From: Vairimorpha necatrix
Taxonomy: Eukaryota
Reading direction: 5' to 3'
NCBI GenBank assembly: GCA_036630325.1
Contig: CP142729.1
Location: 496,001-560,000, forward strand
Length of the DNA: 64,000 bases
The notes below the pieces were generated by a model. The model did no database searches. It had not been told where the DNA came from and worked only from the letters and a program-made list of their open reading frames with translations. The first letter of the stretch is position 1. Every line of letters begins with the position of its first letter. Shown here piece after piece: positions 25,466 through 53,956 of this stretch. A program made the translations under genes and the position numbers.

Positions 25466-26340
25466 GGGGTATTAGAAAATAATTTTTTATAGTAAAATTT
25501 AAATTAATTTTATAAATTAAAATTTAACTACAAAATATTTAAAAAGACTATAATTTTATAATATTTTTTTAATTACGAAAACGATAACATATTTATATTA
25601 TGAAAGATTTTTAATTTAATATGAAATTAGACGTCTTGTTTTTTATTTAGAAAAAAATTATAAAACTGTAGGTTTTCGAGAATTTGAAATTTACAAACGA
25701 CAATTTTTAATCTATTTTTTAAAAAAATTTGACGTTATAAAAACGAGTTTTCGAAATAATAAAAATATGAAATTAGATCATTCTAAGTTAATTATATTTA
25801 TGTAAGATGTTTCCTTAAACAATCATCATGTTTTTATGTTTCTGTAAATTAAAAAAATCATGTTTTTATATATTTTATTGATTATTCGAGATCAAATGTA
25901 AACATGACTCTGCCATTATATTTATTATGATAAATTAAGCAACATTTTTATAATGATTATTTTTATAATTTTTAAAAGCAAACTGCTAAAACTAAATTCA
26001 TTATAATGTCGAAGAAAGAGTACTATTAATCCTCGCATTTTAGAGTGGTAATTTTTATTTTTGCACCCAAAGTCGCAATTCAAGAAGGAACAAGAAATGG
26101 ACAGAAAAGCTGACCATTTTTAGTATTAAGAATGAAAATTATCCCCTTTATATGCAAATTATGAATTTAAATTCGTTTTCCTACTAAACCATACTTAAAG
26201 ATCATATTTGATCTAATTTATAATTTCCGTTTCACGCTACATAAACATTCGAAAAATAAAATATGTGTTTAATTGTCCCTCCCTAAAGTATCAATAATTT
26301 AAACCATTCTTGTTTAATAGTGCATTTTTTTTATTTTATA

Positions 26341-26843
26341 ATAGTGTATGCTGTCCCGTTTTGAAAATGGGATTTAAATGTTTTGCAAAAAAAAATGTAC
26401 CTCTAACCTCTAGTATGATTATTTTTTTTTAGATTTCCATTTTAGGAAGAGCTGATTTCAAAATGAGATGGTATGATTTTAGAAACACTTTTTGAGTAAC
26501 ATTTAAAGAGTAAAATGAAGTTAAAAATACTTTTGAATCTTAATGAGATTATTTTGAGGACCATTAAAGCTCTACTTTGGCACTTATTGTTCAAAATCTT
26601 TATTGAAAAAATATTTTTGCGATTTTTTGTGGAAGGGCTTGAAAATTCACAAAAACGATTCTGACGATATTTTTGTAATAAGTTTAAAACAGAAAACAAG
26701 GTTTCTTATATTGTAGTTTACGCAATCATAATTACATAATTGATTTATAATTTCACATTTTATTTCAAATTGAAAAAGCTGACTTTAGCCAAGATATTTT
26801 AAAAAAGAAAAAGAGGGGTGAAAAATAAAGTCTATTTGTATGA
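26341..26843 (-). mobile_element. Degenerate non-autonomous Helitron copy
   Basis: On the + strand GTATGCTGTCCCGTTTTGAAAATGGGAT, AAAAACGATTCTGAC and AAAAAGAGGGGTGAAAAA match the 50070..51626 units; termini mutated. Confidence 0.75.
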
Positions 26844-27502: not shown

Positions 27503-28999
27503 ATGATGGTTTTGAATATCTTCTTAATTGTTTTCTTAGCAAACGCTACCGAAAATTTGTCAAATAAACTACTCAATATTGTAAATAAAATGAAATTAAA
27601 TAAACAATATGACGAATTCGACATTTTAAAAACTTATGAAATAGATTATATTTCCTATAATGATACAAACTTAGATATAGATAAAATTGAATTAAACAAT
27701 AATGTGACACAAACAGAAATTATCATAAGCAATTATGAAGATACTATTGATGAATGTATAGAAATGTTATACAACAATAAAAATGTAAAACAAGGCCATA
27801 GAATACTCATTTATGACAAAAATCAATATAATTTTGATAATTATAAAAGGCTTATTGATAATTTAAAAGAATACAATTTACAGAATAAGTTACAGAAAAA
27901 TACTATTTACTACGAAACGTTCGCTGAAAAAAATAGTCTGATATATGATTGCATTTTTAATGACATTCAAGATATTAATTATTTGAAAAACAATCGCCCT
28001 TACTTTTATTATTTATTCTATCAATGTAATGGAATTTATTATTTCTTTAATATAAATATTAGAGAACTTGAACCTCAAATTATTTTTAAAAAACATCTAG
28101 AAAATCATTTTAGAGTCAAGAATTATGATGTACGACTTTTAACATATTTTTTAAATCATTCTGATTTTTATGATTTTAACGAAATTTACGGAATTCCTCA
28201 ATTTATGAAAAAAGAAACACTCGAAAAAAATGATATAGATAAACCAGAACTTATAGACAGTTTTTCTCTTCATTATGAAGAAGATGTTATAATATATAAA
28301 CATCAATCAAATACTACTGTATTTCTACATACGAAAGAAATAAAAAAAAATACCAATGATGCATCTAAAAAAATAGTTATTAGTAAAATTCAGTTTGAAG
28401 ATCTAAAAAGATTAGTGCTTTTTATGGATACAAATAGAAAAAATGTTGATGAAATCAACATGTTATATAAAATAATAATTAAAAATTATCCAATAGAAAA
28501 AATATTTGAAAATATTTATAGAAATAAAGATACCGCGATTTATATTTTTGTGAATGAATTTCGTGCCTCTTCGTTGTTAATGAGTAAGGATGAATTTAAC
28601 ATTCTTGTTTCAAATACGAATGTTTTTGACAAAACTATTATATCAATTTCAGGAATGAAAAAAGATATAGAAAAAAAAGTAAAGAATTTTATTCAATTTA
28701 TAACATACGAAAATAACTATAGTACTTATATGATAAAAATAATTATTATTTTAGCATTTGAACAAATAATTAACGAAAATAAAATAGCATTAGATATATT
28801 TAAAACGATAAAAAATATTGTAAATATCATCAACGAAAATAATAAAAAAAATCTATATAAAGAAAACATTGATTTGGTTTATATTTTTGATGAAATTTTG
28901 AGGTATAAAGAAACTATTACTCAATCTGTTCAGGATACGTGGGAGGATATTTTTAACGAATTTTTGGCGTTTGAAGTGAAAAAAGAAAAAAACAATTAA
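27503..28999 (+). CDS. Orphan family A protein (498 aa), signal-peptide-like N-terminus
   Basis: GCCCCA before the ATG; leader MMVLNIFLIVFLANA; full-length similarity to 241..1734. Confidence 0.9.
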   Translation: MMVLNIFLIVFLANATENLSNKLLNIVNKMKLNKQYDEFDILKTYEIDYISYNDTNLDIDKIELNNNVTQTEIIISNYEDTIDECIEMLYNNKNVKQGHRILIYDKNQYNFDNYKRLIDNLKEYNLQNKLQKNTIYYETFAEKNSLIYDCIFNDIQDINYLKNNRPYFYYLFYQCNGIYYFFNINIRELEPQIIFKKHLENHFRVKNYDVRLLTYFLNHSDFYDFNEIYGIPQFMKKETLEKNDIDKPELIDSFSLHYEEDVIIYKHQSNTTVFLHTKEIKKNTNDASKKIVISKIQFEDLKRLVLFMDTNRKNVDEINMLYKIIIKNYPIEKIFENIYRNKDTAIYIFVNEFRASSLLMSKDEFNILVSNTNVFDKTIISISGMKKDIEKKVKNFIQFITYENNYSTYMIKIIIILAFEQIINENKIALDIFKTIKNIVNIINENNKKNLYKENIDLVYIFDEILRYKETITQSVQDTWEDIFNEFLAFEVKKEKNN

Positions 29000-30218: not shown

Positions 30219-32657
30219 TGTAATGAAATAAGGTATATTTTTTTTTCATTATTGGGGTTAGAAAATATAAGAATATATAACATCCCCCCTCCAAGACGGT
30301 TAGTCTCCTACGTCATCATCAACCCTAAGCAGATCTTTAAGTCATAGTGCCTCTTCTTAACTAACGTCCATTCATTAATTTTACTACATAAGAATCTTCG
30401 GACACACAATCCTAATCGTCCCAATATCCAAAAACCTACCTTTTTTATACTTATTAGACCCCCTTAAATTTTCACTCTTCGCAACTCGCACTCTCTGTCC
30501 TTCGACGAACTTGTCTCTATATCTCTTTTAAAATCGACTACTATAATCTCCTTCTGGTCCACTTCTTAGAATTACATTGCCCGTATTATCTTTAACTGCC
30601 TCAAATGGTGTGCATCACAGACCTTCATGGTAACTATTATTATAAATCTCAAAGGCCTTCATAACTCTTTCTTCAAAGCTATTTTTGGGATTCATTTTTA
30701 AAACAGATTCTCTCAACGTACCAATAACTCTTTCAACTCTCCCATTGCTTTTATGTGATTCAATACTGGTCTTTCTGTGAGTTATATCCAACTTTCTGCA
30801 TAACTCTCGAAATTCCTTATTTGCAAATTCTCTTCCATTGTCCGATATGTTTTTTTCTGGTCTTTTATCATTTCTACACAAATTTTCTATAAATCCAGTT
30901 ATCGAGCTAGCACGCTTTTCTTTCAACACGCAACCCCATGAGACTCTCGTATGGTAATCAATGACTACTAAAACGAATTTCCCTAAATCTATATAATCGA
31001 TTAAATCTATTGCCACCTTTTTAGGTATCTACTTGTCGCAATAAAATCGCATCCTCCTGATTTTTTCCTATTGTATTTTTGGCATTTTCACATTTTTTTA
31101 TCATCATCTTTATATCTTCTTTAATTCCTGGCCAATAATAGTCAAACTTCATAGCATAATAGACACTTCCTAGTCCTCTGTGGGCCTGTTCTTCGTGGTA
31201 CCTCTTCATTAACTCTAACCTATCACCTATTGCAGGTATTTCCGCTCTACGACCAGAATAAAAATTCTAGTACTCCTTGTCTTCGACTTTCTCAACATGC
31301 TTTAACCATTTTCCCGCTATCTGTTTCTCAGTTCTTTGTCTAATCACTTCTCTCTTTGGTTCATTTACCTTATGAATTCTGCTCAATGCATCAGCAACAA
31401 CCATCTGATCGGGTTGCCTGTACTCGATTTCAAAATCAAACTCTTGGATCATCTCTATCCACCTGTTAATCCTATATTATTAAAAAATGGCTGTCTTCTT
31501 ATTTCTGCTAAAGCCTTATGATCAGTTTCAACCTTAAACTTTCTTCCTCTCAATTCATACTCAAACTTTTTTATGCCCCAATATACAGCGTACATCTCTT
31601 TCTCGCTAATTCCGTATCTAGTTTCAGTCGGAGTAAATTTCTTTGATGCCCATTGTACCGACACCCATTCCTCTTTTTCATTTTTCTGCATAAGTACAGC
31701 TCCCATACCAATATTACTCGCATCCGTTTTTAATAAAAATTCTTTCTCGCAATTAGAATCCTCAATTTCCCTAAATTCTTAAGCACTTTTTTCATATTCT
31801 CAAATTCAATATCCAACTCCTCAGTCCAATTCCAACTTTTGTTTTTCCCTCTTAAGCAATCTGTCATGTGTATCGTTTTCTCTGTCTAGTTCTTTATAAA
31901 TCAATGAACCAACCACTTAATCCTATAAATCTTTTTGTCCGTACCATTTTGCGGCTTCGGGAACTCTATTGTTTAGTTTATTTTCATATCAGATGGCATC
32001 ATATCTTGCCCATTCAATCTTGTCGTCTCATAATTTCTCTTCTTAATATATTTTATCTCTCTAGTTCGTTCCCGTGGTATTTATGGTCTATCTTCTATTG
32101 TTTCCTTTGCCTTATGCTGCCGTATTTCTAGAATATCTTCCATCGCTGCTGCTACTGTCCTCTTGATATATATTCTCACATTATTATTTATTCCTTTCCT
32201 ATCTGTATCTATATTAACATCTATTACTTTTATGTACTAATCATTTAAAAAACATCTCATAGACCTCACATACTGTCTGCCATGCTCTTTTTTCTTATAT
32301 ATATTTCTTTAGTTAACTTCTTTGTGACTTCTTCAATCATTCTAAATCTCTCTTCTCCATCTTCATAATCTTTATCAATCTCTTTTAGATGTGTTCCTAT
32401 TATGTCATGATTATGTTTTAAATTTATATTCCAAACCATAAAATTTTTCAGCTCATTGCTTCTCTTTTTGAAAAAATTTTCTTAAAATCATCATCGTGTC
32501 AACCCTCAATTATTTTGATCTCATACATAATAATCTCATATTCTTGCAATAATTTTCTGGCCTCTTGAACACGGCCAACACTTGTTAACTCGGATTTGGT
32601 ATCGCCACATGTGTATATATCCATTATTAGGGGTTGGAAATATAAGAATATAAAATA
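30219..32657 (-). mobile_element. Older Ty3/Gypsy LTR retrotransposon, internally deleted and degenerate, with ~50-65-bp LTRs
   Basis: Fragments of RNase H (KTDASNIGMGAVL, SEKEMYAV, ETDHKAL, VADALSR) followed by integrase (HEEQAHRG, AIDLI, SDNGREF, SNGRVER). Short direct repeats at 30219-30282 and ~32610-32657, PPT GGAGGGGGA next to the former, TGGCGATACC PBS-like site next to the latter. Protease and most of RT not found. Outer boundaries approximate. Confidence 0.85.
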
Positions 32658-35070: not shown

Positions 35071-35128
35071 CAAGGTTGCTAGGTGATGAATAAAGTACTA
35101 AAAAAATCATTTACTTTATTATTATATT

Positions 35129-35198
35129 TGTCGAATGTTCCTTTATTTACGAATTGCATGGGGGTGAAAATATATAATATTTATAGAAGGATACGACA
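35129..35198 (-). repeat. 3' LTR (70 bp)
   Basis: Identical by eye to 38605..38674; abuts the PPT. Confidence 0.95.
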
Positions 35199-35211
35199 CC
35201 TCTCCCCCCCT
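35199..35211 (-). other. Polypurine tract AGGGGGGGAGAGG overlapping the pol stop codon
   Basis: 13 consecutive purines on the minus strand directly before the 3' LTR; TAG at 35212-35210. Confidence 0.9.
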
Positions 35212-38200
35212 AAATTGAAGTATCTGCTTTAACTCGTGTTTTGTTAAGCCTGTATACTTTTCCATTCTTTTTTACCACATAGGCATCGGGTAAAATTATT
35301 TCTGTGATCACGTATCCATCTTCCCAATTGCACTTGAACTTCCCGCTTTTGGTCTCACGATATATTAAAACTTTATCGCCCACGTTTAGCTTTTTCGCCA
35401 CCTCTACTTTCCCTTTCACGATTGCTTTTTTGTACTTTTCGAAGTTTTCATCGCGCTTACTCTTCGTTTCCTCCGCTGAGAATGTCACTTCTTCCTTGTC
35501 TAGCGCTTTGTCTACAGACAGCATCGGCAATTTATTCTCCCTTAACATGAACGGCGATGTTCCTATGCTCCGATTATAAGACAGGTTGAGGCATCTCGTG
35601 GCTTCTGGAAGCTTGTTCTTCCAGCTTACCCTTCCGAAATCTGTAATTTTATTTAGTATCTTCATTAACGTCTGATTCGCTCTTTCTACTGCGCCTACAG
35701 TTTCGTGATGTTCTGGTGAACTGTATTGCCAGTCAATACCGTTCTTTTCGGCCAGGTCTTTGATGTCAGAATTTATAAATTCTAGCCCGTTGTCAGTCAA
35801 GATTCTTTCTGGAATGCCGTGTTTCTCGATAATCAATTGCTGGATTAATCCCATTATTTTCGACCCTGTTTTATAGTTAATAACAGCCGTCTCGACCCAT
35901 TTAGAGTAGTGGTCAATAGCAATGAATATGAAGCTGTTTTGACCCGAAGTGTCGCATATGCGTCCTATGAGATCTATCACCCATATTTGGTTCGGCCTTT
36001 CTGATCGTATAACTTTGTTTTTTTGTGTTTCGTAATGGGTATCCCGATTTCAAGCACGTTTTACACTTTTCTACGTGTTCCTTGATGTCCTTATGCATTC
36101 CTGCCCATTTGTACCTCTGTGAAATCATGAAGCTCATCGTACTAGCGCTAGCATGTCCAACGTCTAGATGGTAGGATTCTAAGATCTTCTGTCTGTCTTC
36201 ATCGCTTGGTCCTGTAGCTTCGATGATATTTATATCTTTCTCTGTCGGGGTTTGTCTGCTTAACCCGTCTGCTCCATTAACCTCTCCTTTTATGTAGGTT
36301 GATTGAAATGCATACTCCTGCAACTTCATTGCCCACCTCAGCAATCTACTGGTAGGGTTCTTAGCTTCCCATAGATAAGTCAGCGCTTTGTGGTCCGTCT
36401 TCAATATGAACTCTCTACCCAGGAGGTAGTGTCTATAGTTCTCGATGCCTTTTACAACGGCCAAGAGTTCTTTGTCTGTTGTAGAGTAGTTCTTATGGGC
36501 TTTCTCTAAACTTTTGCTGAATGCACTTACGAAGTGCTCCTTCCCATCATCTCCAATCTGTGAGAGGATCGCGCCTATTCCCTGCTCTGACGCATCCGTA
36601 GTCAGTATAAACGGTTTCCTGAGATTAATCTTGTATCTTATTGTCTCTTCTGTGAGAAGTCTCTTTAGATCTTCGAATGCCCGTTTCTCCTTTTTGCTGA
36701 GAGAAATACTCTTAACACTTCGCTTTGACTCTCCTTTAAACAGTTCGTAGAGAGGGGCTGCTATCGCTGATAAGTTACGGATGAACTCCCTACAGTAATT
36801 TATGAGCCCAAGAAACGACCGTAGTTGAGCAATATTCGTCGGCTCCTTATACTCGTTTATGGCTTTGACCTTCTCTGGGTCCGGTTTGATCGTCTTGTTT
36901 GTTACTATATTCCCTAGAATTTTAATTTCTTCTTTGAAGAAGTGGCACTTCTTCCTGTTAAGTGCGATTCCTGCTGCCTTAAGCTTACCCAATACGATTT
37001 CCAAGTGCTCACGGTGTTCCTGTGATTTTTAGAATAGATAATAATGTCATCCAAGTATGGTATGACGAATTTTCTGTTTTCTTTCACAAAAATCTTATCC
37101 ATAGTTCTCTGAAAAGTAGCAGGGGCATTACATAGCCCAAACGGCATCCTGTTAAATTCATAATGTCCTCCTCTCCAGCTGAATGCTGTCTTCTCCTTGT
37201 CTACTTCTTCAAGGGCTATCTGATAATATCCCGACGTAGCATCTAATGTCGAAAAGATAGTAGCGTCAGCTAGATCGTCGAGAATTTCATCAATTCGTGG
37301 GAGGGGGTATTTATCTTTGACTGTTATCTTGTTGAGCTCTCTGTAATCTATACAGAGCCTGATCGACCCATCAGGTTTCGTTACCGGAACAACTCTACTG
37401 TTCCAGGGGCTCCTACTATTTCTTATTACGCCCAACTGCAAGTTCTTCTTGATCTGTTGTGTGATTTCCTCTTCAAAGTGCAGAGGGATCTTTCCATTTT
37501 TCTGGTAAATTGCCTTCGCTACTGTTGTCTCGATTTGATGTTTCCCCATGTTACAAAGTGTAAGCTCTGAAATTTCAGTTTTGAACATGTCATGGTATTT
37601 CTCTTCGATTGAGATGTAATTGACTTTGTTAATCAGTGAGCCTTTCTTGACTGTATTGGCGAATTTTCTGATCAGTTGTTCCAGTAATATGGGGTTCGTT
37701 CGTATAGCGTCAACTCCTAAGATTATGTAGTCCGGTGTCCGTTCTGTGACGTAAGGGCTGAAAGTAATTGAAGTGTTTTCCGTCCTAAAATTGATATTTA
37801 GACATCTTCCTGTAATCTCCAATTGTGTCCCTGATGCTGCTCGTATGATCGTTGAAGATCTGGTAAATCTGATATTTGTCCCTTCGAGGACTCTTGCGGG
37901 TATCAGGGAGACATCAGCTCCGGTATCAATTAATGCTCGATGTCGTTTACGATTGAATTCTACGTTTATGTAGCAAGGATTAGTGAAACAGCTGTTGATC
38001 TTGTAGTTTTCTATGGTGTAGGGTATATTTCCCTTCTTCGATGGTCCGACCTTCAAAGTCCTGTTATCTAGTGTCTCGTCCGTATTAGTCGTGTTACTTT
38101 TCATAGGGAATGCTATCCAAGAAACTTCCTCTGTGCGCCTCAGGAATTCACTCCAATCTTGGCATTGTCTAGCAAAATTATAAAGAATTGATTTGAGGAC

Positions 38201-38635
38201 TGAAGGAGACTTCTTGATTACTATGAGGCTGACTGCTTTGTACTCCATTGTTTGTTGCTCTATAAGGGAGTTTCCTTTCCTGCAGAAGTCTATGAAAGCC
38301 TCTAGGTTGCCAAATTGTTGCGGTTTAACAAACTCGTCTAGAGTGGCCAGAGTTTTCTGTGAACTGTAAAATCTCAATTTTAGACTCTTAGTAACCTCTG
38401 CCAGATCAAGTTCGGACACCCGTTCAAATGCCATTGCTATCCATGAGAGAGCTGGCCCCCGTAGACCCAGGCAGATAAGTCTGGCGGTCTGATCTTCTGT
38501 CAGTCCCATAACCCTCGCCGTGAACGTTGTGTCACGCAACCATGTATTTATATCCTCTTCCTTCTTTCCACTGAAGCAGCCAACAGTTTTTATCGCTGTC
38601 GCCATGTCGAATGTTCCTTTATTTACGAATTGCAT
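35210..38635 (-). pseudogene. gag-pol polyprotein (1,141 aa if repaired) with two compensating frameshifts
   Basis: ALIDTGAD (protease), RMPFGLCNAPATFQ and YLDD (RT), TTDASEQG and TDHKAL (RNase H), HLDVGH..CKTC, IDLIG, TDNGLEF, VERAN (integrase). The span of 3,426 nt is an exact multiple of 3. A 1-nt loss near 37020 and a 1-nt gain in the T run near 36018-36024; either may be a sequencing error. Confidence 0.9.
38594..38604 (-). other. Primer binding site TGGCGACAGCG (inside the gag frame)
   Basis: TGG immediately follows the 5' LTR end, complementary to tRNA CCA. The next base implies a G discriminator (Ser is a candidate, unverified). Confidence 0.7.
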
Positions 38636-38674
38636 GGGGGTGAAAATATATAATATTTATAGAAGGATACGACA
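38605..38674 (-). repeat. 5' LTR (70 bp) containing TATAAA, CCCCC-ATG and AATAAA
   Basis: Minus strand TGTCGTATCCTTCTATAAATATTATATATTTTCACCCCCATGCAATTCGTAAATAAAGGAACATTCGACA. Confidence 0.95.
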
Positions 38675-39004
38675 ATATTTTTTTTTTTTATTATCCCTTC
38701 AAAATTATTCCCCTCAAAAATTCGAGACCAAATTTCTAGTTCATCGTAAACGACCATTTATTTGTACTATTTTTTCGATTGATCCCTCGCTATAGATTTT
38801 TTTACCTCTGGCTATCGTTTCGAACTGTGACAATAAATAAAAAAATTTTAAAAATGTTTTCGCTGTTGATTTCATACTTACTATTATATTTATTCTTTTA
38901 AATATCAAATTTATTTTAAATTCTTTTTTTTTTCGAATTAGAAAATCATAATAAACAAACGATAAATAATAGTTTATTTCGTTAATTTTTTTCTTTAGTT
39001 TAGA

Positions 39005-47880: not shown

Positions 47881-50069
47881 TAAAAAGGGTATAAATTAAT
47901 TTTTTTATGAATTCTTCATTTAGCTTATGTGTATAAATATTTTAATTATCAATAACATTATTTAAATAAGGTATTTACAATTTCCAATACTTAGCAATTT
48001 TTTCTCCAAAATCTTATTTAAAGGTTTTTTGGTTGGCTTAAAGTGACATTAAATCTAATATCATAAGAATTTAACTCATTAATAGTTAATTTAAAGAAAT
48101 TATATTTTTTCGTTGAGCATCAGCTTAAATATTTTAAATAATTATTCTATTATTAATTTATAAATATAGTAAAAACAAACTGAATGTGTTCTTTTACTTA
48201 ATTGTTTTGACAAATTATGTCATTAACATTTTTTTCTACATTTTTAGTGAAATGAAAATTTGACATCAAATATGCGAAAATGGCGCAAAGTTGACTCACC
48301 ACAATAAACTATATCTCTATATAACAAATGGTAAATAATTGTTAAATTTGTATTTAAAACTATATATAAATTGGTTTCTTTGTTTTTTTAAATTATACGT
48401 TTAAAAGTTCCAAATAATTGTAAATTAATGCTTTTTACATTTTTTATCTTCTTACAAAAATTATATCTTAGTCTTATTATATTGATTTATAATTTCTTCC
48501 ATTACTTTTTATTTATTAACTACAATAAAATAAATGAAGTTTTTAGTTATTTTTGATTCATAATCCTATACTCCTTATATTATTATTATTATTATAAAGT
48601 ATGTATTTTGTCGAAAAAAAATGTATGTGTTTAGTTTAATGCGATATAATTTCAATGTTCTACATAACAAATGCTTATAATTTAAACCATAACTAAAAAA
48701 TACGAGAATCTTAAGATGATATTTAATTACAACAATGCAGCAAAAAAATAACATAAATTTGAATTATTTGCAAAATAACCAAGATTTTGTACCTAATCTT
48801 TAATGATTTATGTTAATTCTATATCATTAAAAAAATGCAGGAATTATCATAAAAATATTTGTTTTTGTATGGATACAAATGGGTAGAAACTAGAATTTTA
48901 AATCATAAATCAACTAAAAAAAATTAAAAAAAGTGTCTGAATGTTTTTTACTTTAAACGAAAAAGGTGATTGTATTTATGCCCCTACTTGATGTAGTAAG
49001 TTGTATGAAATTATTCAACTTTTAGAGTAAAATAAATTTTCTGCAAATATTGTTTACCGTATTGGTTTAGTTATAACTCAAATTTATCATTTTTGTTCAA
49101 ATTCTATAATCATTTGTTACAAATAAATTTTAAATATGCTAAATTTTCATTAGTTTGTATGAGTTTTCAAATTCTTAGAACAATATACAAAAGTACAAAA
49201 GCAAAAACTATTTTTAAACATTCATTCATATGTTCCAGATATAGCCCTTATCCAACATAATTATGAAAGAACCAACTTTAGCTATTTTTTATATAAAATA
49301 TGCTTCTCTGGCTTTTATTCAAAAAAAAAAATAACTGATTCAATAATGCAATATAATTCGTATTTCTAACAAATTTTATTTTTCAATTGATATAATACAT
49401 GATAATTAATTGGTTGAGTTAATTGTTTGCTTTATAGTTTTTTTTTGTGTATTAAATTATCGTAGTCAAGTATTAGTTTTTAATAGTAAAGCCATATTTT
49501 TACTCCTGTATTTTTGATAGTAATAATTTAATCTAAATCACTCATATATTACTAGAAAATAATGACTCTTAAATACCAGTTCATTCTAATAGGCATTTTG
49601 CTTAAATCTTGTAATTTTTATTATACTTTTTGGTTTTTACCTCTTTTTAAATACATAGTAAAAATAATGAAACATAAAAACTTAGGTTACTTAGAAGAAA
49701 TAGGAAATAAAAAATTAGTTTTAAGTTTCTGTACGTAATTTTACAGAATGTTTATATTTAATTGCCGTCAGTTGTTTTCAGATGTGTTACGGTAAAACTT
49801 TATAATGTTTTTGTAATAATAATAATGATTCAAAGTTTCATGATCAAACATGTGTTCTTTCAAATACTTTTCATATACACCACAGAAGTACTCTTATAGG
49901 CCGTTAATGTTTTTTTTTAATGTTTGATTTCTTTTAGACACGGGGTGATAATACTTTTCGAAAATAATTATGTTCACAATTCTTAATTCATAATACCAAG
50001 ATCTCCTTATAGGAAATATTTTTTTAAAGAATGAGGTCTGACTCTGTCTTTGATTTATTTTATAGTAAA

Positions 50070-51626
50070 CTAGCGTATGCTTTCCCGTTTTGAAAACGGG
50101 ATCTAAAAGTTTAGTTTGATAATATGTCTTTCATCCTCAAATTTTGTAAAGTTTCCATTTTGGATGATTACATTTGACAGAGTTTAGACATGATTTTCAA
50201 GAATACTTTTTAGTAACATATAAGGAGTAGTGTTGCTTTAAAACATTTAATAATCTCAATAGATAATTTTGAAAACTTCTTAAGCTCAGTTTTTGACACT
50301 TACATTAATTTCTTCTTCGTTATTTGTTTTTAAAATTTTTCCTGGAAGGGTTAAATAAATTCTAACAAACGATTCTGACAATATTTTGGAACTGAGTTTA
50401 ACAAAAATAATAATCAAAATTAAAATGTATTAACACATAGTATACATACTTACAATAATCATATCGAAACATTAGATATAAATTTGATATTTTTAATGCA
50501 CAATAAAGGGAAAATAAATAGTTTAAAAATTTCAAAGTCACAAAAAAGAGGGGTAAAAAATTAAATAAAATTCTTTTATATATATGATGACTAGCGTATG
50601 CTTTCCCGTTTTGAAAACGGGATTTATTTATTTTGTTGTGGCATTTACTTCCTCCTTTGTTTTTTTTGATCTTCCATTTTTATTTTGAATAAGAAAAGGA
50701 AAAAGCATAATTTTTAAAAATACTTTTTAGTAACATATAAGGAGTAAAGTTGAGCTAAAACATTTAATAATTATAATGAGATAATTTTGGAAACTTCTTA
50801 GCTCATTTTTGACACTTATATTCAAAATCTTCATTTGTCACTTGTTTTTACAATTTTTCGTAGAAGGGTTAAATAAATTCTAAAAAACGATTCTGACAAT
50901 ATTTTGAAATCGAGTTTCACAAAAATAATAATCAAAATTAAAATGTATTAACACATAGTATACATACTTACAATAATCATATCGAAACATTAGATATAAA
51001 TTTGATATTTTTAATGCACAATAAAGGGAAAATAAATAGTTTAAAAATTTCAAAGTCACAAAAAAGAGGGGTAAAAAATTAAATAAAATTCTTTTATATA
51101 TATGATGACTAGCGTATGCTTTCCCGTTTTGAAAACGGGATTTATTTATTTTGTTGTGGCATTTACTTCCTCCTTTGTTTTTTTTGATCTTCCATTTTTA
51201 TTTTGAATAAGAAAAGGAAAAAGCATAATTTTTAAAAATACTTTTTAGTAACATATAAGGAGTAAAGTTGAGCTAAAACATTTAATAATTATAATGAGAT
51301 AATTTTGGAAACTTCTTAGCTCATTTTTGACACTTATATTCAAAATCTTCATTTGTCACTTGTTTTTACAATTTTTCGTAGAAGGGTTAAATAAATTCTA
51401 AAAAACGATTCTGACAATATTTTGAAATCGAGTTTCACAAAAATAATAATCAAAATTAAAATGTATTAACACAAAGTATACACACTTACAATAATCATAT
51501 CGAAACATTAGATATAAATTTGATATTTTTAATACACAAATAGGGTAAAATAAGAAGTTTAGATTTTACAAAATTACAAAAAAGAGGGGTAAAAAATTAA
51601 ATAAAAGTTTTTTATATATATGATGA
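50070..51626 (-). mobile_element. Head-to-tail array of three non-autonomous Helitrons (50070-50590, 50591-51108, 51109-51626)
   Basis: On the minus strand each unit runs TCATCATATATATAAAA...TCCCGTTTTCAAAACGGGAAAGCATACGCTAG. CTAG|TC junctions have no spacer, and the array is flanked by A and T. Confidence 0.92.
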
Positions 51627-53956
51627 TACATTTATAACATATTAGCTTAGAAATATACTTTCCTCATACAATTGATATGAACTGTTTTAAAGTCGTAGTT
51701 TTAGATATATTTTTTAAGCGTTGCCATAATTTTGTTTTTCTAAAAAACCTTTATCTAAGTACATATCTATATTTAATGGTTTATTTACAAGATTCGAGTT
51801 TTTTTATATATTTATGTTAAATATAGTACATTAAAAAATCAACACTTATGATATCTCCCCGGATTTTAATTAGCGTTTTTATTTTTTAAGAGTTGAAAGT
51901 AACCATGTATGTAATATTTAATTATAATTAAAGAAATTATTTGAATACCAATTTAAAATCTATTTTCAAATATAGTATTATTTATTTTATAAAGTCAAGA
52001 TTTCTAAATTTTTGTCTCTATGTTAATGACAAAAAAGAAGTCAGTTGTAACTGACACATATGTTCAGATTGCAATGATTAAGATCATCCAGAGTTATATT
52101 ATTAAATCTGAGGCAAGGCAGCTTTAAAAGACTGTAGTAAGGCGAATAATTGAGTTTGTCATCGATAGTGTACATAAACACTGCAACGATAAGTTAGTAA
52201 AAGCTATTGATGAACTTTTATAATTACGTCATATGATTTATTGTATTACCTGATCTAGGTTTTATGATGCTTTTTTTTGTGCTAAAATAATACAGTAAAC
52301 ATTTTTTTATTAATATTACTAAAAGAAATTTTTCTAGTAAATGCTAACACTATATTATAATTTCTTAACCAAGGGCTATATACTATTTATAAAGTTTTCA
52401 TTATACGGTTTAAAACATTTAAAAATATAGTTAGTTCAAAACAATAGAATCTCTTTTCTCTAGATGTTAGTATTAAAAAAATTAAATGGACAATAAACAC
52501 AATGGAATTACAAAATAAATATTTCCTCTGTAACGAATTTGTATTAACATATAATGATTTCAACCACTATACTTTTTGAAAAAAATCATCATTCAAATGC
52601 AATTGGTCTTGCTACTACTTTAAACAAAAATTCTTAAAAAAACAATATACAAGTGAATACTATGTTGTTCGATATTTGCTATATACCCATAATCTTATTT
52701 ATACATGTATTTATACTAATAAATAATTTACACTCTATACCAATATGAATCTTTATATTTTATTTACATATTTATAGATTCATGGTCAATTTAGAACCCT
52801 AATTCGTAAATTGATCATTATTTTGGTTTTTTTATCGCTTACTATATCATCAAAAATAAAGGTATGCTTGTTCGCACCCATTATCTTTAAGGAATCATTT
52901 TCGAAATCTCTACTCTTTTGTGGTCCGAAAGATGGTGCTAAGTTCACCTAGCGGGCACCAATGAATATACAATTAAACTTGGTCAGTAACTATACCCCCT
53001 CAGATTAGCACGTAAAGTATAATTTTTGTTTTGTATCCATAAATTTGCTGAGTTTATTTTATGAGGGCTGTACACGGGTTTTTTATAATTTGTTACTCCG
53101 TGTCATTCCTGTGAAAACTATTCATACAGTAAGATTTCGATTTTATGCTTCAAAATGATAATTTAATTGTAGCTTTACGGGTCATTTAAATATTATAATA
53201 TAGGACATGTAATTATAAGTGCCATCTTGATGGTCTTAACATACAAAATTTTTTATTCGAATTGGATCACCTTCTGGTCTTTAGAAACGCATAATACAAT
53301 TTAACTAATATTTTGTTTTTTTTTGTTGGTTTTTGAAAGTCTTTATTGGTCATTTATAACACACAAAGTGTACGTGTCGAGATTTTATGTTCAGTTCTAA
53401 TATAATGTCTATAGTCTGTGAAATTTTTGATCAATTATAGTATTAACTGCAAATACAATGCTTAAAGTAATAAGTAAGCTAATTATTTATCTATACATCT
53501 TCAAAAATGATGATTAATTATGAAGCATATAATTTAGATCCAGAGTTCTTGCTTGAAAAAAAAAATTTAAATAAAATTTGTTATTATATTCACTATATTA
53601 GTTCTAGTTTCATAAAATTTAAGATAACAAAGGACGAAAATTTAAAACAAAATAATAACGAAAAGTCTTTTATTTATTCTTCGCATTCCCTTTTTTTGTT
53701 TAGTATTAACAAAATAACATGATTACTGTTACGTAGAAGTAGAACAGTGACAATTCAATATACAAAAAAATTGAATGAATAATATTTACCATTGTTGTAG
53801 TTTATATGATATTATGTCGACCATTTTAATAATTAATTTACAAACAAATTACAAGACCTGCTCTCGAAATTTAAAGATATGTCAGTAAAATTTCTTTTTA
53901 TAAATTTAAAAATCTGTTTTTTTTTGTTGGAAGTACTGAAAGAAATTAAAGAGTTA

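Follow-up and report, generated by a model that had tools for sequence, protein, structure and literature searches.

The DNA analysed here is a stretch of 64,000 nucleotides (nt) from the microsporidian Vairimorpha necatrix (assembly GCA_036630325.1, contig CP142729.1, positions 496,001 to 560,000 of the forward strand), referred to throughout as the window and numbered from its first letter. On its minus strand, between positions 35129 and 38674, lies a long terminal repeat (LTR) retrotransposon of 3546 base pairs (bp) that is bounded by two identical LTRs of 70 bp each. An earlier note on this DNA had proposed that the gag gene of this element begins inside the LTR, at an ATG set in a host-type CCC context, and that its frame runs on, across the LTR end and the primer-binding site (PBS), into the body of the element. 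In the following we describe the anatomy of the element and the setting of this ATG, document the corresponding region in related proteins and in elements of another microsporidian, and weigh the explanations of where Gag-Pol synthesis begins. The window as a whole is gene-sparse, with 11 open reading frames (ORFs) of at least 150 amino acids (aa) in 64 kb, and its G+C content is 0.21-0.29 outside the stretch at 30-40 kb that bears the transposable elements (up to 0.42) and the bin at 18-20 kb (0.30).

Anatomy of the element and of its copies

The boundaries of the LTRs are fixed by three features in combination: termini of the TG..CA type (TGTCG at the start and CGACA at the end), a 5-bp target-site duplication (TSD) with the sequence AATAT outside both LTRs, and a polypurine tract (PPT) that adjoins the 3′ LTR. 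The two LTRs (38674-38605 and 35198-35129) align with 0 mismatches, a match seen in none of 100 shuffled controls. Contigs from individual sequencing runs, denoted X1, X2, X3 and X5, were aligned to the element at the DNA level, and one from X1 confirms the 5′ LTR end by joining a PPT to the LTR exactly at 38674. The constituent features, read from the 5′ to the 3′ end of the element, are as follows.

38675-38679, minus strand: upstream copy of the TSD AATAT, matching 35124-35128
38605-38674, minus strand: 5′ LTR, 70 bp, TGTCG...CGACA, an exact repeat of 35129-35198
38655-38661, minus strand: TATAAAT, TATA-box-like, beginning at -26 from the ATG at 38635
38636-38640, minus strand: CCCCC, a microsporidian CCC-like motif, adjoining the ATG
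38633-38635, minus strand: first in-frame gag-pol ATG, at LTR positions 40-42; kept in X1 and X2 contigs and in the V. necatrix protein P0157
38618-38623, minus strand: AATAAA poly(A)-signal hexamer, in frame as Asn5-Lys6, ending 13 nt before the LTR end
38603-38605, minus strand: second in-frame ATG (Met11), formed by the terminal A of the LTR and the TG of the PBS
38593-38604, minus strand: putative PBS TGGCGACAGCGA, translated (M)ATA, its TGG start directly after the LTR
36914-38635, minus strand: gag-protease-reverse transcriptase (RT) frame, 573 codons from ATG 38635, with Pfam RVT_1 and aspartyl protease
35913-37028, minus strand: frame with the end of RT, RNase H and the integrase zinc domain, shifted against the first frame near 37021
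35210-36049, minus strand: integrase core frame, shifted again near 36018 (a run of A), with the stop TAG at 35212-35210
35199-35210, minus strand: PPT GGGGGGGAGAGG, adjoining the 3′ LTR
35129-35198, minus strand: 3′ LTR, identical to the 5′ LTR, with its own ATG at 35159
35124-35128, minus strand: downstream copy of the TSD AATAT

All of the LTR motifs that the earlier note had listed, together with the PBS and the ATG at the junction of the two, were thus recovered at their positions on the minus strand; an AT tract is likewise contained in the 70 bp. The frame that had been followed across the LTR end proved to be open from 38656 to 36914, with a translation beginning MQFVNKGTFDMATAIK, and encounters no stop in AATAAA (Asn-Lys), at the LTR end, or in the PBS (Met-Ala-Thr-Ala). 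At the opposite end of the element the gag-pol stop TAG overlaps the PPT by one base, its G being the first G of that tract, and the distance from ATG 38635 to this stop accounts for 3426 of the 3546 bp. The second ATG, at the junction, is no special coincidence, because a PBS of the TGG.. type next to an LTR ending in CA always creates one.

Pfam domains distributed over the three frames succeed one another in the order gag-asp_proteas/RVP, RVT_1, RT_RNaseH, Integrase_H2C2 and rve. Because protease, RT, RNase H and integrase follow in this order, the element is, as judged from its sequence, a Ty3/gypsy (Metaviridae) LTR retrotransposon of a microsporidian clade. A tRNA pairing with its putative PBS would end in ...UCGCUGUCGCCA. 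The window contains no tRNA genes, and within it the PBS complement was found at the PBS alone; the PBS bears a resemblance to the complement of a tRNA-Ser, which makes this tRNA a tentative candidate partner.

In the window copy, one frame change near 37021 and another near 36018 break pol and leave the coding sequence split over three frames, so that this copy on its own cannot supply RT, RNase H and integrase. At each of these two sites, contigs of X1 show a one-base difference from the window, and relatives of 1088-1284 aa are single polyproteins, those of 1197 and 1215 aa being encoded on contigs of 3.7-3.9 kb. Because of these one-base differences and single-ORF relatives, the intact form of the family is read as one ORF that fills almost the whole element. 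Programmed frameshifting was considered as the origin of the two pol shifts and rejected, since the other copies differ by single-base insertions or deletions and the relatives are single ORFs.

At the 5′ end, an X1 contig that runs from PPT through LTR and PBS into gag has an LTR without any difference from that in the window. An X2 contig (38200-38644) keeps the ATG and shows a sole LTR change, at 38614, which replaces Thr8 by Ala; a second difference, at 38267, lies within gag. The replacement of Thr8 is shared by protein P0157, which begins MQFVNKGAFDMATAIK; a V. necatrix copy other than that in the window has the N-terminus MQFVNKGAFDMATA, and near-identical proteins are annotated in this species. 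The ATG on whose conservation among copies the earlier note had made its proposal depend is therefore retained wherever these contigs and P0157 cover it.

Two additional observations concern the sequencing-run contigs. One X1 contig of 1320 nt contains the integrase end, the PPT (with one G fewer than in the window, at 35205), a single LTR, and the PBS, and continues into gag; it could stem from elements in tandem with an LTR in common, from a circle with one LTR, or from collapse of a multi-copy family by the assembler, alternatives between which contigs cannot distinguish. Contigs from a freshwater (X3) and a bat-gut (X5) metagenome match the element between 36141 and 38410 in five pieces each, 78-197 nt long and mostly with 0-6 differences (one aligning over 37 nt only), too few for a conclusion on habitat.

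Host-type context of the ATG within the LTR

Viewed from the ATG at 38635, the LTR presents TATAAAT from -26 and CCCCC at -5 to -1, the latter behind TTTT. This geometry was compared with a host set comprising the nine ORFs of at least 120 aa in the window, with the ORFs of the element left out. CCC occurs at -9 to -3 in seven of these nine. Three (with starts at 1734, 25465 and 27503) also carry TATA[AT]A[AT], at -27, -26 and -26, and in the same three CCC(C) is placed at -5, -4 and -5, respectively. A composite motif was then defined as TATA[AT]A[AT] starting at -32 to -25, CCC at -15 to -3, and ATG. It occurs 7 times in the window, compared with 1.25 +/- 1.16 (maximum 5) in 60 Markov simulations, and the seven matches coincide with three host ORF starts (accounting for four matches by virtue of adjacent ATGs at 27503 and 27506), the two LTRs, and the LTR-like end of a decayed element described below. 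Counted back from the second ATG (38605), TATAAAT would begin at -56 and CCCCC would occupy -35 to -31, neither of which falls in the host windows. An in-frame ATG followed by 10 open codons would by itself be weak evidence of a start; the promoter-like context is not weak.

Published descriptions of microsporidian genes, taken here and below from portions of the cited articles, depict the same arrangement. In Nosema ceranae the TATA motif peaks near -27, and three C residues preceded by a run of T are found no more than 15 bp from the start (PMC2685015). For Encephalitozoon cuniculi, rapid amplification of cDNA ends yielded 5′ untranslated regions (UTRs) of 1 and 6 nt, with a CCC-like motif directly upstream of the start, and the poly(A) signal AAUAAA is described as being recognised stochastically (PMC2803860). 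In V. necatrix itself, CCC or GGG lies within 30 bp in 77% of the genes with a functionally characterised product (PMC10759460). The background that the earlier note had assumed, namely short 5′ UTRs and CCC-like motifs near microsporidian start codons, is matched by these three reports. Because the host ORFs of the window, the excess of the composite motif, and the published data from Nosema, E. cuniculi and V. necatrix agree, we regard the sequence context of ATG 38635 as host-type.

The decayed element that supplied the remaining composite match is a second Ty3/gypsy remnant, on the minus strand at 30219-32240. Pfam identifies RNase H, the integrase zinc domain and the integrase core in broken frames (30615-31778). 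The remnant ends in a PPT-like GGAGGGGGGA, followed by an LTR-like sequence, TGTTATATATT...CCCCAATA-ATG (30282 to ~30219), the beginning of which resembles the printed sequence of an element of Anncaliia algerae, retroL, considered below; a 5′ partner of this LTR-like end was not found in the window.

The earlier note had also proposed that flanking DNA receives a promoter and an ATG from each 3′ or solo LTR. The logic of this suggestion is sound, but the window offers no example: the frame opened by the ATG of the 3′ LTR (35159) extends for 26 codons of flanking DNA and then meets a stop, and neither repeat comparison nor blastn detected a solo LTR within the 64 kb.

Elsewhere in the window, a tandem array of ~518-bp units occupies 50053-51651, in three copies that are 85-96% alike and contain the conserved core TGCT.TCCCGTTTTGAAAA.GGGAT; a related single unit occurs at 26324-26699, 24 kb upstream of the array.

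The LTR-encoded extension in related elements

A HMMER search with Gag residues 1-220 retrieved 173 relatives, among them named gag proteins from Nosema granulosis, Conglomerata obtusa and V. necatrix; the counts that follow refer to the 150 that were listed, most of which share 22-38% identity with the query. Within the first 50 residues, 120 of the 150 contain a junction motif, D-M-A-[ST], corresponding to the point at which the window frame leaves the LTR; the other 30 are N-terminally shorter fragments. A Met-started extension precedes this motif in ~101 of the 120 (median 13 residues, range 7-39, mode 10-12), one of the relatives, P0050, having been misfiled by the regular expression and reclassified by eye; in a further five the extension is cut by a contig end. 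By chance, an upstream in-frame ATG would be met before a stop in 14-22% of cases (random DNA of 20-40% GC). Since the relatives possess an open, Met-started frame at this place, the region would be coding in them as well.

The composition of the extension is itself patterned. The residue preceding the junction Met is D in 85 and N in 15 of 105 extensions, and in an alignment of 36 sequences (A1) both Met11 and Ala12 are at least 90% conserved. The dipeptide NK appears in 46 of the 105, in 38 of these at 5-8 residues upstream of the junction Met, and its frequency (0.0326) is nine-fold that in the next 200 residues (0.0036). We read D-M-A-[S/T] as the probable translation of an LTR end (GAC A) and a PBS (TGG CG. 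C..), and NK as that of the poly(A) hexamer; in the two other frames, AATAAA gives a TAA stop or x-I-K/N.

Many of the relatives also carry a Cys/His knuckle-like motif, C..HG...H.T..C, in the part that extends from the capsid-like region to the protease (A1 columns ~300-330). The Gag of the window is without this motif, and its gag-protease linker is shorter than those of the relatives. A scan for the pattern of LTR end, PBS and gag gave one match among viral contigs and 13 among metagenome contigs, all of them GC-rich (0.51-0.67) chance occurrences without gag.

DNA sequence for comparison was available from A. algerae, for which the 5′ ends of 16 elements printed in Supplementary File S1 of Parisot 2014 (PMC4202319) were inspected by eye. 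In at least nine of the 16 (retroA, B, M, U, W, V, L, T and _AA) the polyprotein ATG falls within the LTR or ahead of the PBS and is preceded by signals of the CCC, GGG or AATAAA type; four of the 16 (retroU, W, M and F, by hand count) have a TATA sequence at -26 or -27. The translation of Consensus_retroV, compared by eye, is the relative P0037, and provides a direct reading of the junction: D-M-A-S, predicted to be GAC ATG GCG TCA, is confirmed in the printed retroV sequence, in which a GG.GG. motif, the ATG, an in-frame ..A ATA AA. (E-I-K), and GAC A followed by TGGCGTCACCGAC succeed one another, with an LTR of ~105 nt. In retroL, TATATA, AATAAA, CCC-ATG and ..AACA followed by TGGCGTCA are accommodated within ~49 nt, and the element printed ahead of retroT has an LTR of ~81 nt, of the TGTCG...CGAC type, with CCCC, ATG and AATAAA. 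The LTRs of retroU and retroW (~177 and 200 nt) are verified by 3′ copies, and those of retroA, B and M take the form GTTGG...CCAACC; all five begin their polyprotein within the LTR, and AATAAA closely precedes or follows the ATG. In some of these relatives the poly(A) hexamer lies in U3, just upstream of the ATG, and no bypass would be needed (all PMC4202319); in the window element the hexamer would lie in R. Taken with the protein data, the printed sequences indicate that a start within the LTR is probably general among microsporidian gypsy elements. In retroU, retro_AA and retroW the LTR is followed, instead of by a TGG-type PBS, by a palindromic ..TTGAATTCAA.. stretch (PMC4202319), which suggests that some gypsy groups of microsporidia are primed in another way.

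Microsporidian LTR elements have been described as encoding a single gag-pol polyprotein, and the main text of that report, the tables and figures of its supplement aside, contains no mention of an ORF start in the LTR in the portions considered here (Parisot 2014, PMC4202319). The window element has in common with the Ty3/gypsy groups of A. algerae the homology of its gag to that of retroV and the layout with an ATG in the LTR; its 70-bp LTR is shorter than most of theirs (~80-200 bp), retroL apparently having one of ~49 bp. A GGG motif ahead of the start codon of one transposable element was reported by Panek 2014 and read there as domestication, the signal being described, in the portion cited, neither as LTR-internal nor as a family-wide design (PMC4072689). 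Our literature search found no statement of a microsporidian gag start within an LTR, and Xu et al. 2006, on the Nbr elements of Nosema bombycis, might hold one; no usable published statement of the shortest known LTR was retrieved.

In the yeast element Ty1, the start codon lies within the 5′ LTR, the LTRs measure ~330 bp, the 5′ UTR spans tens of nt, and the PBS is that for tRNA-iMet. The precedent that the earlier note had drawn from Ty1 is borne out in that the Ty1 PBS lies inside the GAG ORF, as in the window element (PMC4974528). The two differ in that Ty1 has the order protease-integrase-RT and two ORFs with a frameshift, whereas the window element has protease-RT-RNase H-integrase, which places it outside Ty1/copia, an LTR of 70 bp, and a predicted leader of a few nt only. 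With Ty3 it shares the domain order, the Pfam content, TG..CA LTRs, a 5-bp TSD and a PPT. In Ty3, however, the PBS lies beside the 5′ UTR and is non-coding, and the ORFs are GAG3 and POL3 (PMC4974528), whereas the PBS of the window element forms part of the coding frame, in a family with a single polyprotein. These comparisons predict an element whose 5′ end operates in the manner of Ty1, although by superfamily it is a member of Ty3/gypsy.

The predicted start of Gag-Pol synthesis

We consider it probable that the AUG in the LTR (38635) is present in the mRNA and used as the gag start. The geometry of the LTR, the other copies, the extension conserved in the family, and the Ty1 precedent all favour this central part of the earlier proposal; the transcription start itself is one that we infer. 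Transcription would begin 0-4 nt upstream of ATG 38635, in the manner of near-leaderless host mRNAs, dividing the LTR into a U3 of ~36-39 nt (containing the attachment, or att, end, the TATA box, the AT tract and CCCCC), an R of ~31-34 nt, and little or no U5. The first AUG of the genomic RNA would then lie inside the LTR, and translation of Gag-Pol would proceed from there through AAUAAA (Asn-Lys), the LTR end recognised by integrase (the Asp codon GAC plus A) and the PBS (Met-Ala-Thr-Ala), to end at the stop overlapping the PPT, such that intact copies would devote 3426 of 3546 bp to one ORF. The junction AUG (Met11, in the context GACAUGG) might act as a second or back-up start.

Under this arrangement the 5′ AAUAAA, 12 nt from the predicted RNA 5′ end, would have to be bypassed, and the copy in the 3′ LTR would direct cleavage near the terminal CA. 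The hexamer is separated from the LTR end by 13 nt in the window, and the position of NK implies 10-19 nt in relatives; from this spacing, cleavage would be expected at approximately the LTR end, with a U5 close to nil. Minus-strand strong-stop DNA would measure only ~35 nt. In retroviruses with AAUAAA in R, such as HIV-1, the hexamer likewise occurs at both RNA ends and the promoter-proximal copy is ignored; the window element differs from HIV-1 in that its hexamer would be ~12 nt from the predicted cap site and inside coding sequence. Choice of the 3′ end may be aided by AU-rich U3 RNA (including UAUAUA), which would be present upstream of the 3′ copy only, and AU-rich stretches are known from yeast as poly(A) efficiency elements. 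Weak or stochastic site recognition, as reported in part of the E. cuniculi study (PMC2803860), would fit the skipping of a cap-proximal AAUAAA.

Several considerations weigh against initiation at the LTR AUG. With CCCCC adjoining the ATG the leader would be 0-4 nt, and an AUG so close to the cap is skipped in most eukaryotes; this AUG moreover has C at both -3 and +4, positions held by A and G, respectively, around the junction AUG. Fourteen of the 120 relatives with the junction motif begin exactly at the junction Met, so that the extension can be dispensable. The N-termini of the relatives derive from automatic gene callers, which favour long ORFs, a bias for which the chance expectation of 14-22% allows; and the conservation of D and NK may be driven at the level of DNA or RNA, in which case it attests to an open frame and not to a function of the peptide. 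The A. algerae layouts were judged by eye, with LTR ends verified by a 3′ copy for some only, and one X1 gag contig lacks a base at 38456 and is frame-shifted inside gag, X2 agreeing with the window at this point.

The principal alternative places the transcription start beyond ATG 38635, for instance at 28-35 nt or more past the TATA box, with Gag made from the junction ATG 38605 only and the upstream ATG an untranslated part of U3. A distance of ~30 nt from TATA box to transcription start would indeed fall at or just past the first ATG, and the context of the junction AUG, the conservation of Met11 and Ala12 in A1, and the 14 relatives that start at this Met are all consonant with such a start. 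Conservation of Met11 is nevertheless no evidence of initiation, because it follows automatically from an LTR ending in CA and a PBS starting with TGG. What this alternative leaves unexplained are the ~101 of 120 extensions that are open and Met-started, in the face of a 14-22% chance expectation, and the avoidance by AATAAA of the frame that would yield TAA; in addition, R would shrink below 30 nt, and the host ORFs with TATA at -26/-27 and CCC at -5/-4 must start transcription upstream of their own ATG. We therefore think it unlikely. A different objection, that the ATG in the LTR is fortuitous, with an open frame of no significance in a dead and decaying copy, could appeal to the two frame changes in pol, and to ten open codons with an in-frame ATG being not improbable alone. 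It is disfavoured by the identical LTRs and intact TSD, by an N-terminus shared with other copies (X1, X2 and P0157), by an extension pattern that holds across the family, and by the same architecture in the printed A. algerae consensus elements, and we assign it a very small probability.

Initiation at the LTR AUG need not be exclusive. In a sub-case of the explanation preferred here, both AUGs would be used, by leaky scanning past the cap-proximal AUG, giving rise to two N-terminal isoforms of Gag-Pol. The very short predicted leader, the weak context of the first AUG beside the strong one of the second, and the occurrence of relatives with and without the extension are in keeping with this, whereas host genes with CCCC adjoining the ATG evidently initiate at that ATG; we entertain the two-isoform model as a tentative possibility, rather doubtful on present evidence.

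On a broader proposal, that the whole 5′ cis module (R, the poly(A) hexamer, the LTR end recognised by integrase, and the tRNA PBS) has been folded into Gag coding in the microsporidian Ty3/gypsy clade as an adaptation to near-leaderless host mRNAs, we find the balance even. If it is true, LTRs of only ~50-100 bp would stay functional, among the shortest known for autonomous elements, and D-M-A-[S/T] and the recurrent N-K would be held in place by tRNA complementarity, integrase recognition and 3′-end formation, not by protein function. The family would thereby offer an example of protein residues fixed by the constraints on nucleic acid (PBS, LTR end and AAUAAA), and of pronounced compaction, with 96.6% of intact copies consisting of one ORF, and with promoter, start codon, poly(A) signal and att site overlapping in role within 70 bp. 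A short R would also make the minimal requirements of strand transfer directly testable. Software for LTR detection is commonly set to require repeats of at least ~100 bp; at this setting it would miss the family, pieces of which gene callers label as host proteins, for example "reverse transcriptase". For the parasite itself, every LTR copy would bring a host-type promoter together with an ATG, and solo LTRs could create or drive transcripts in a gene-sparse genome.

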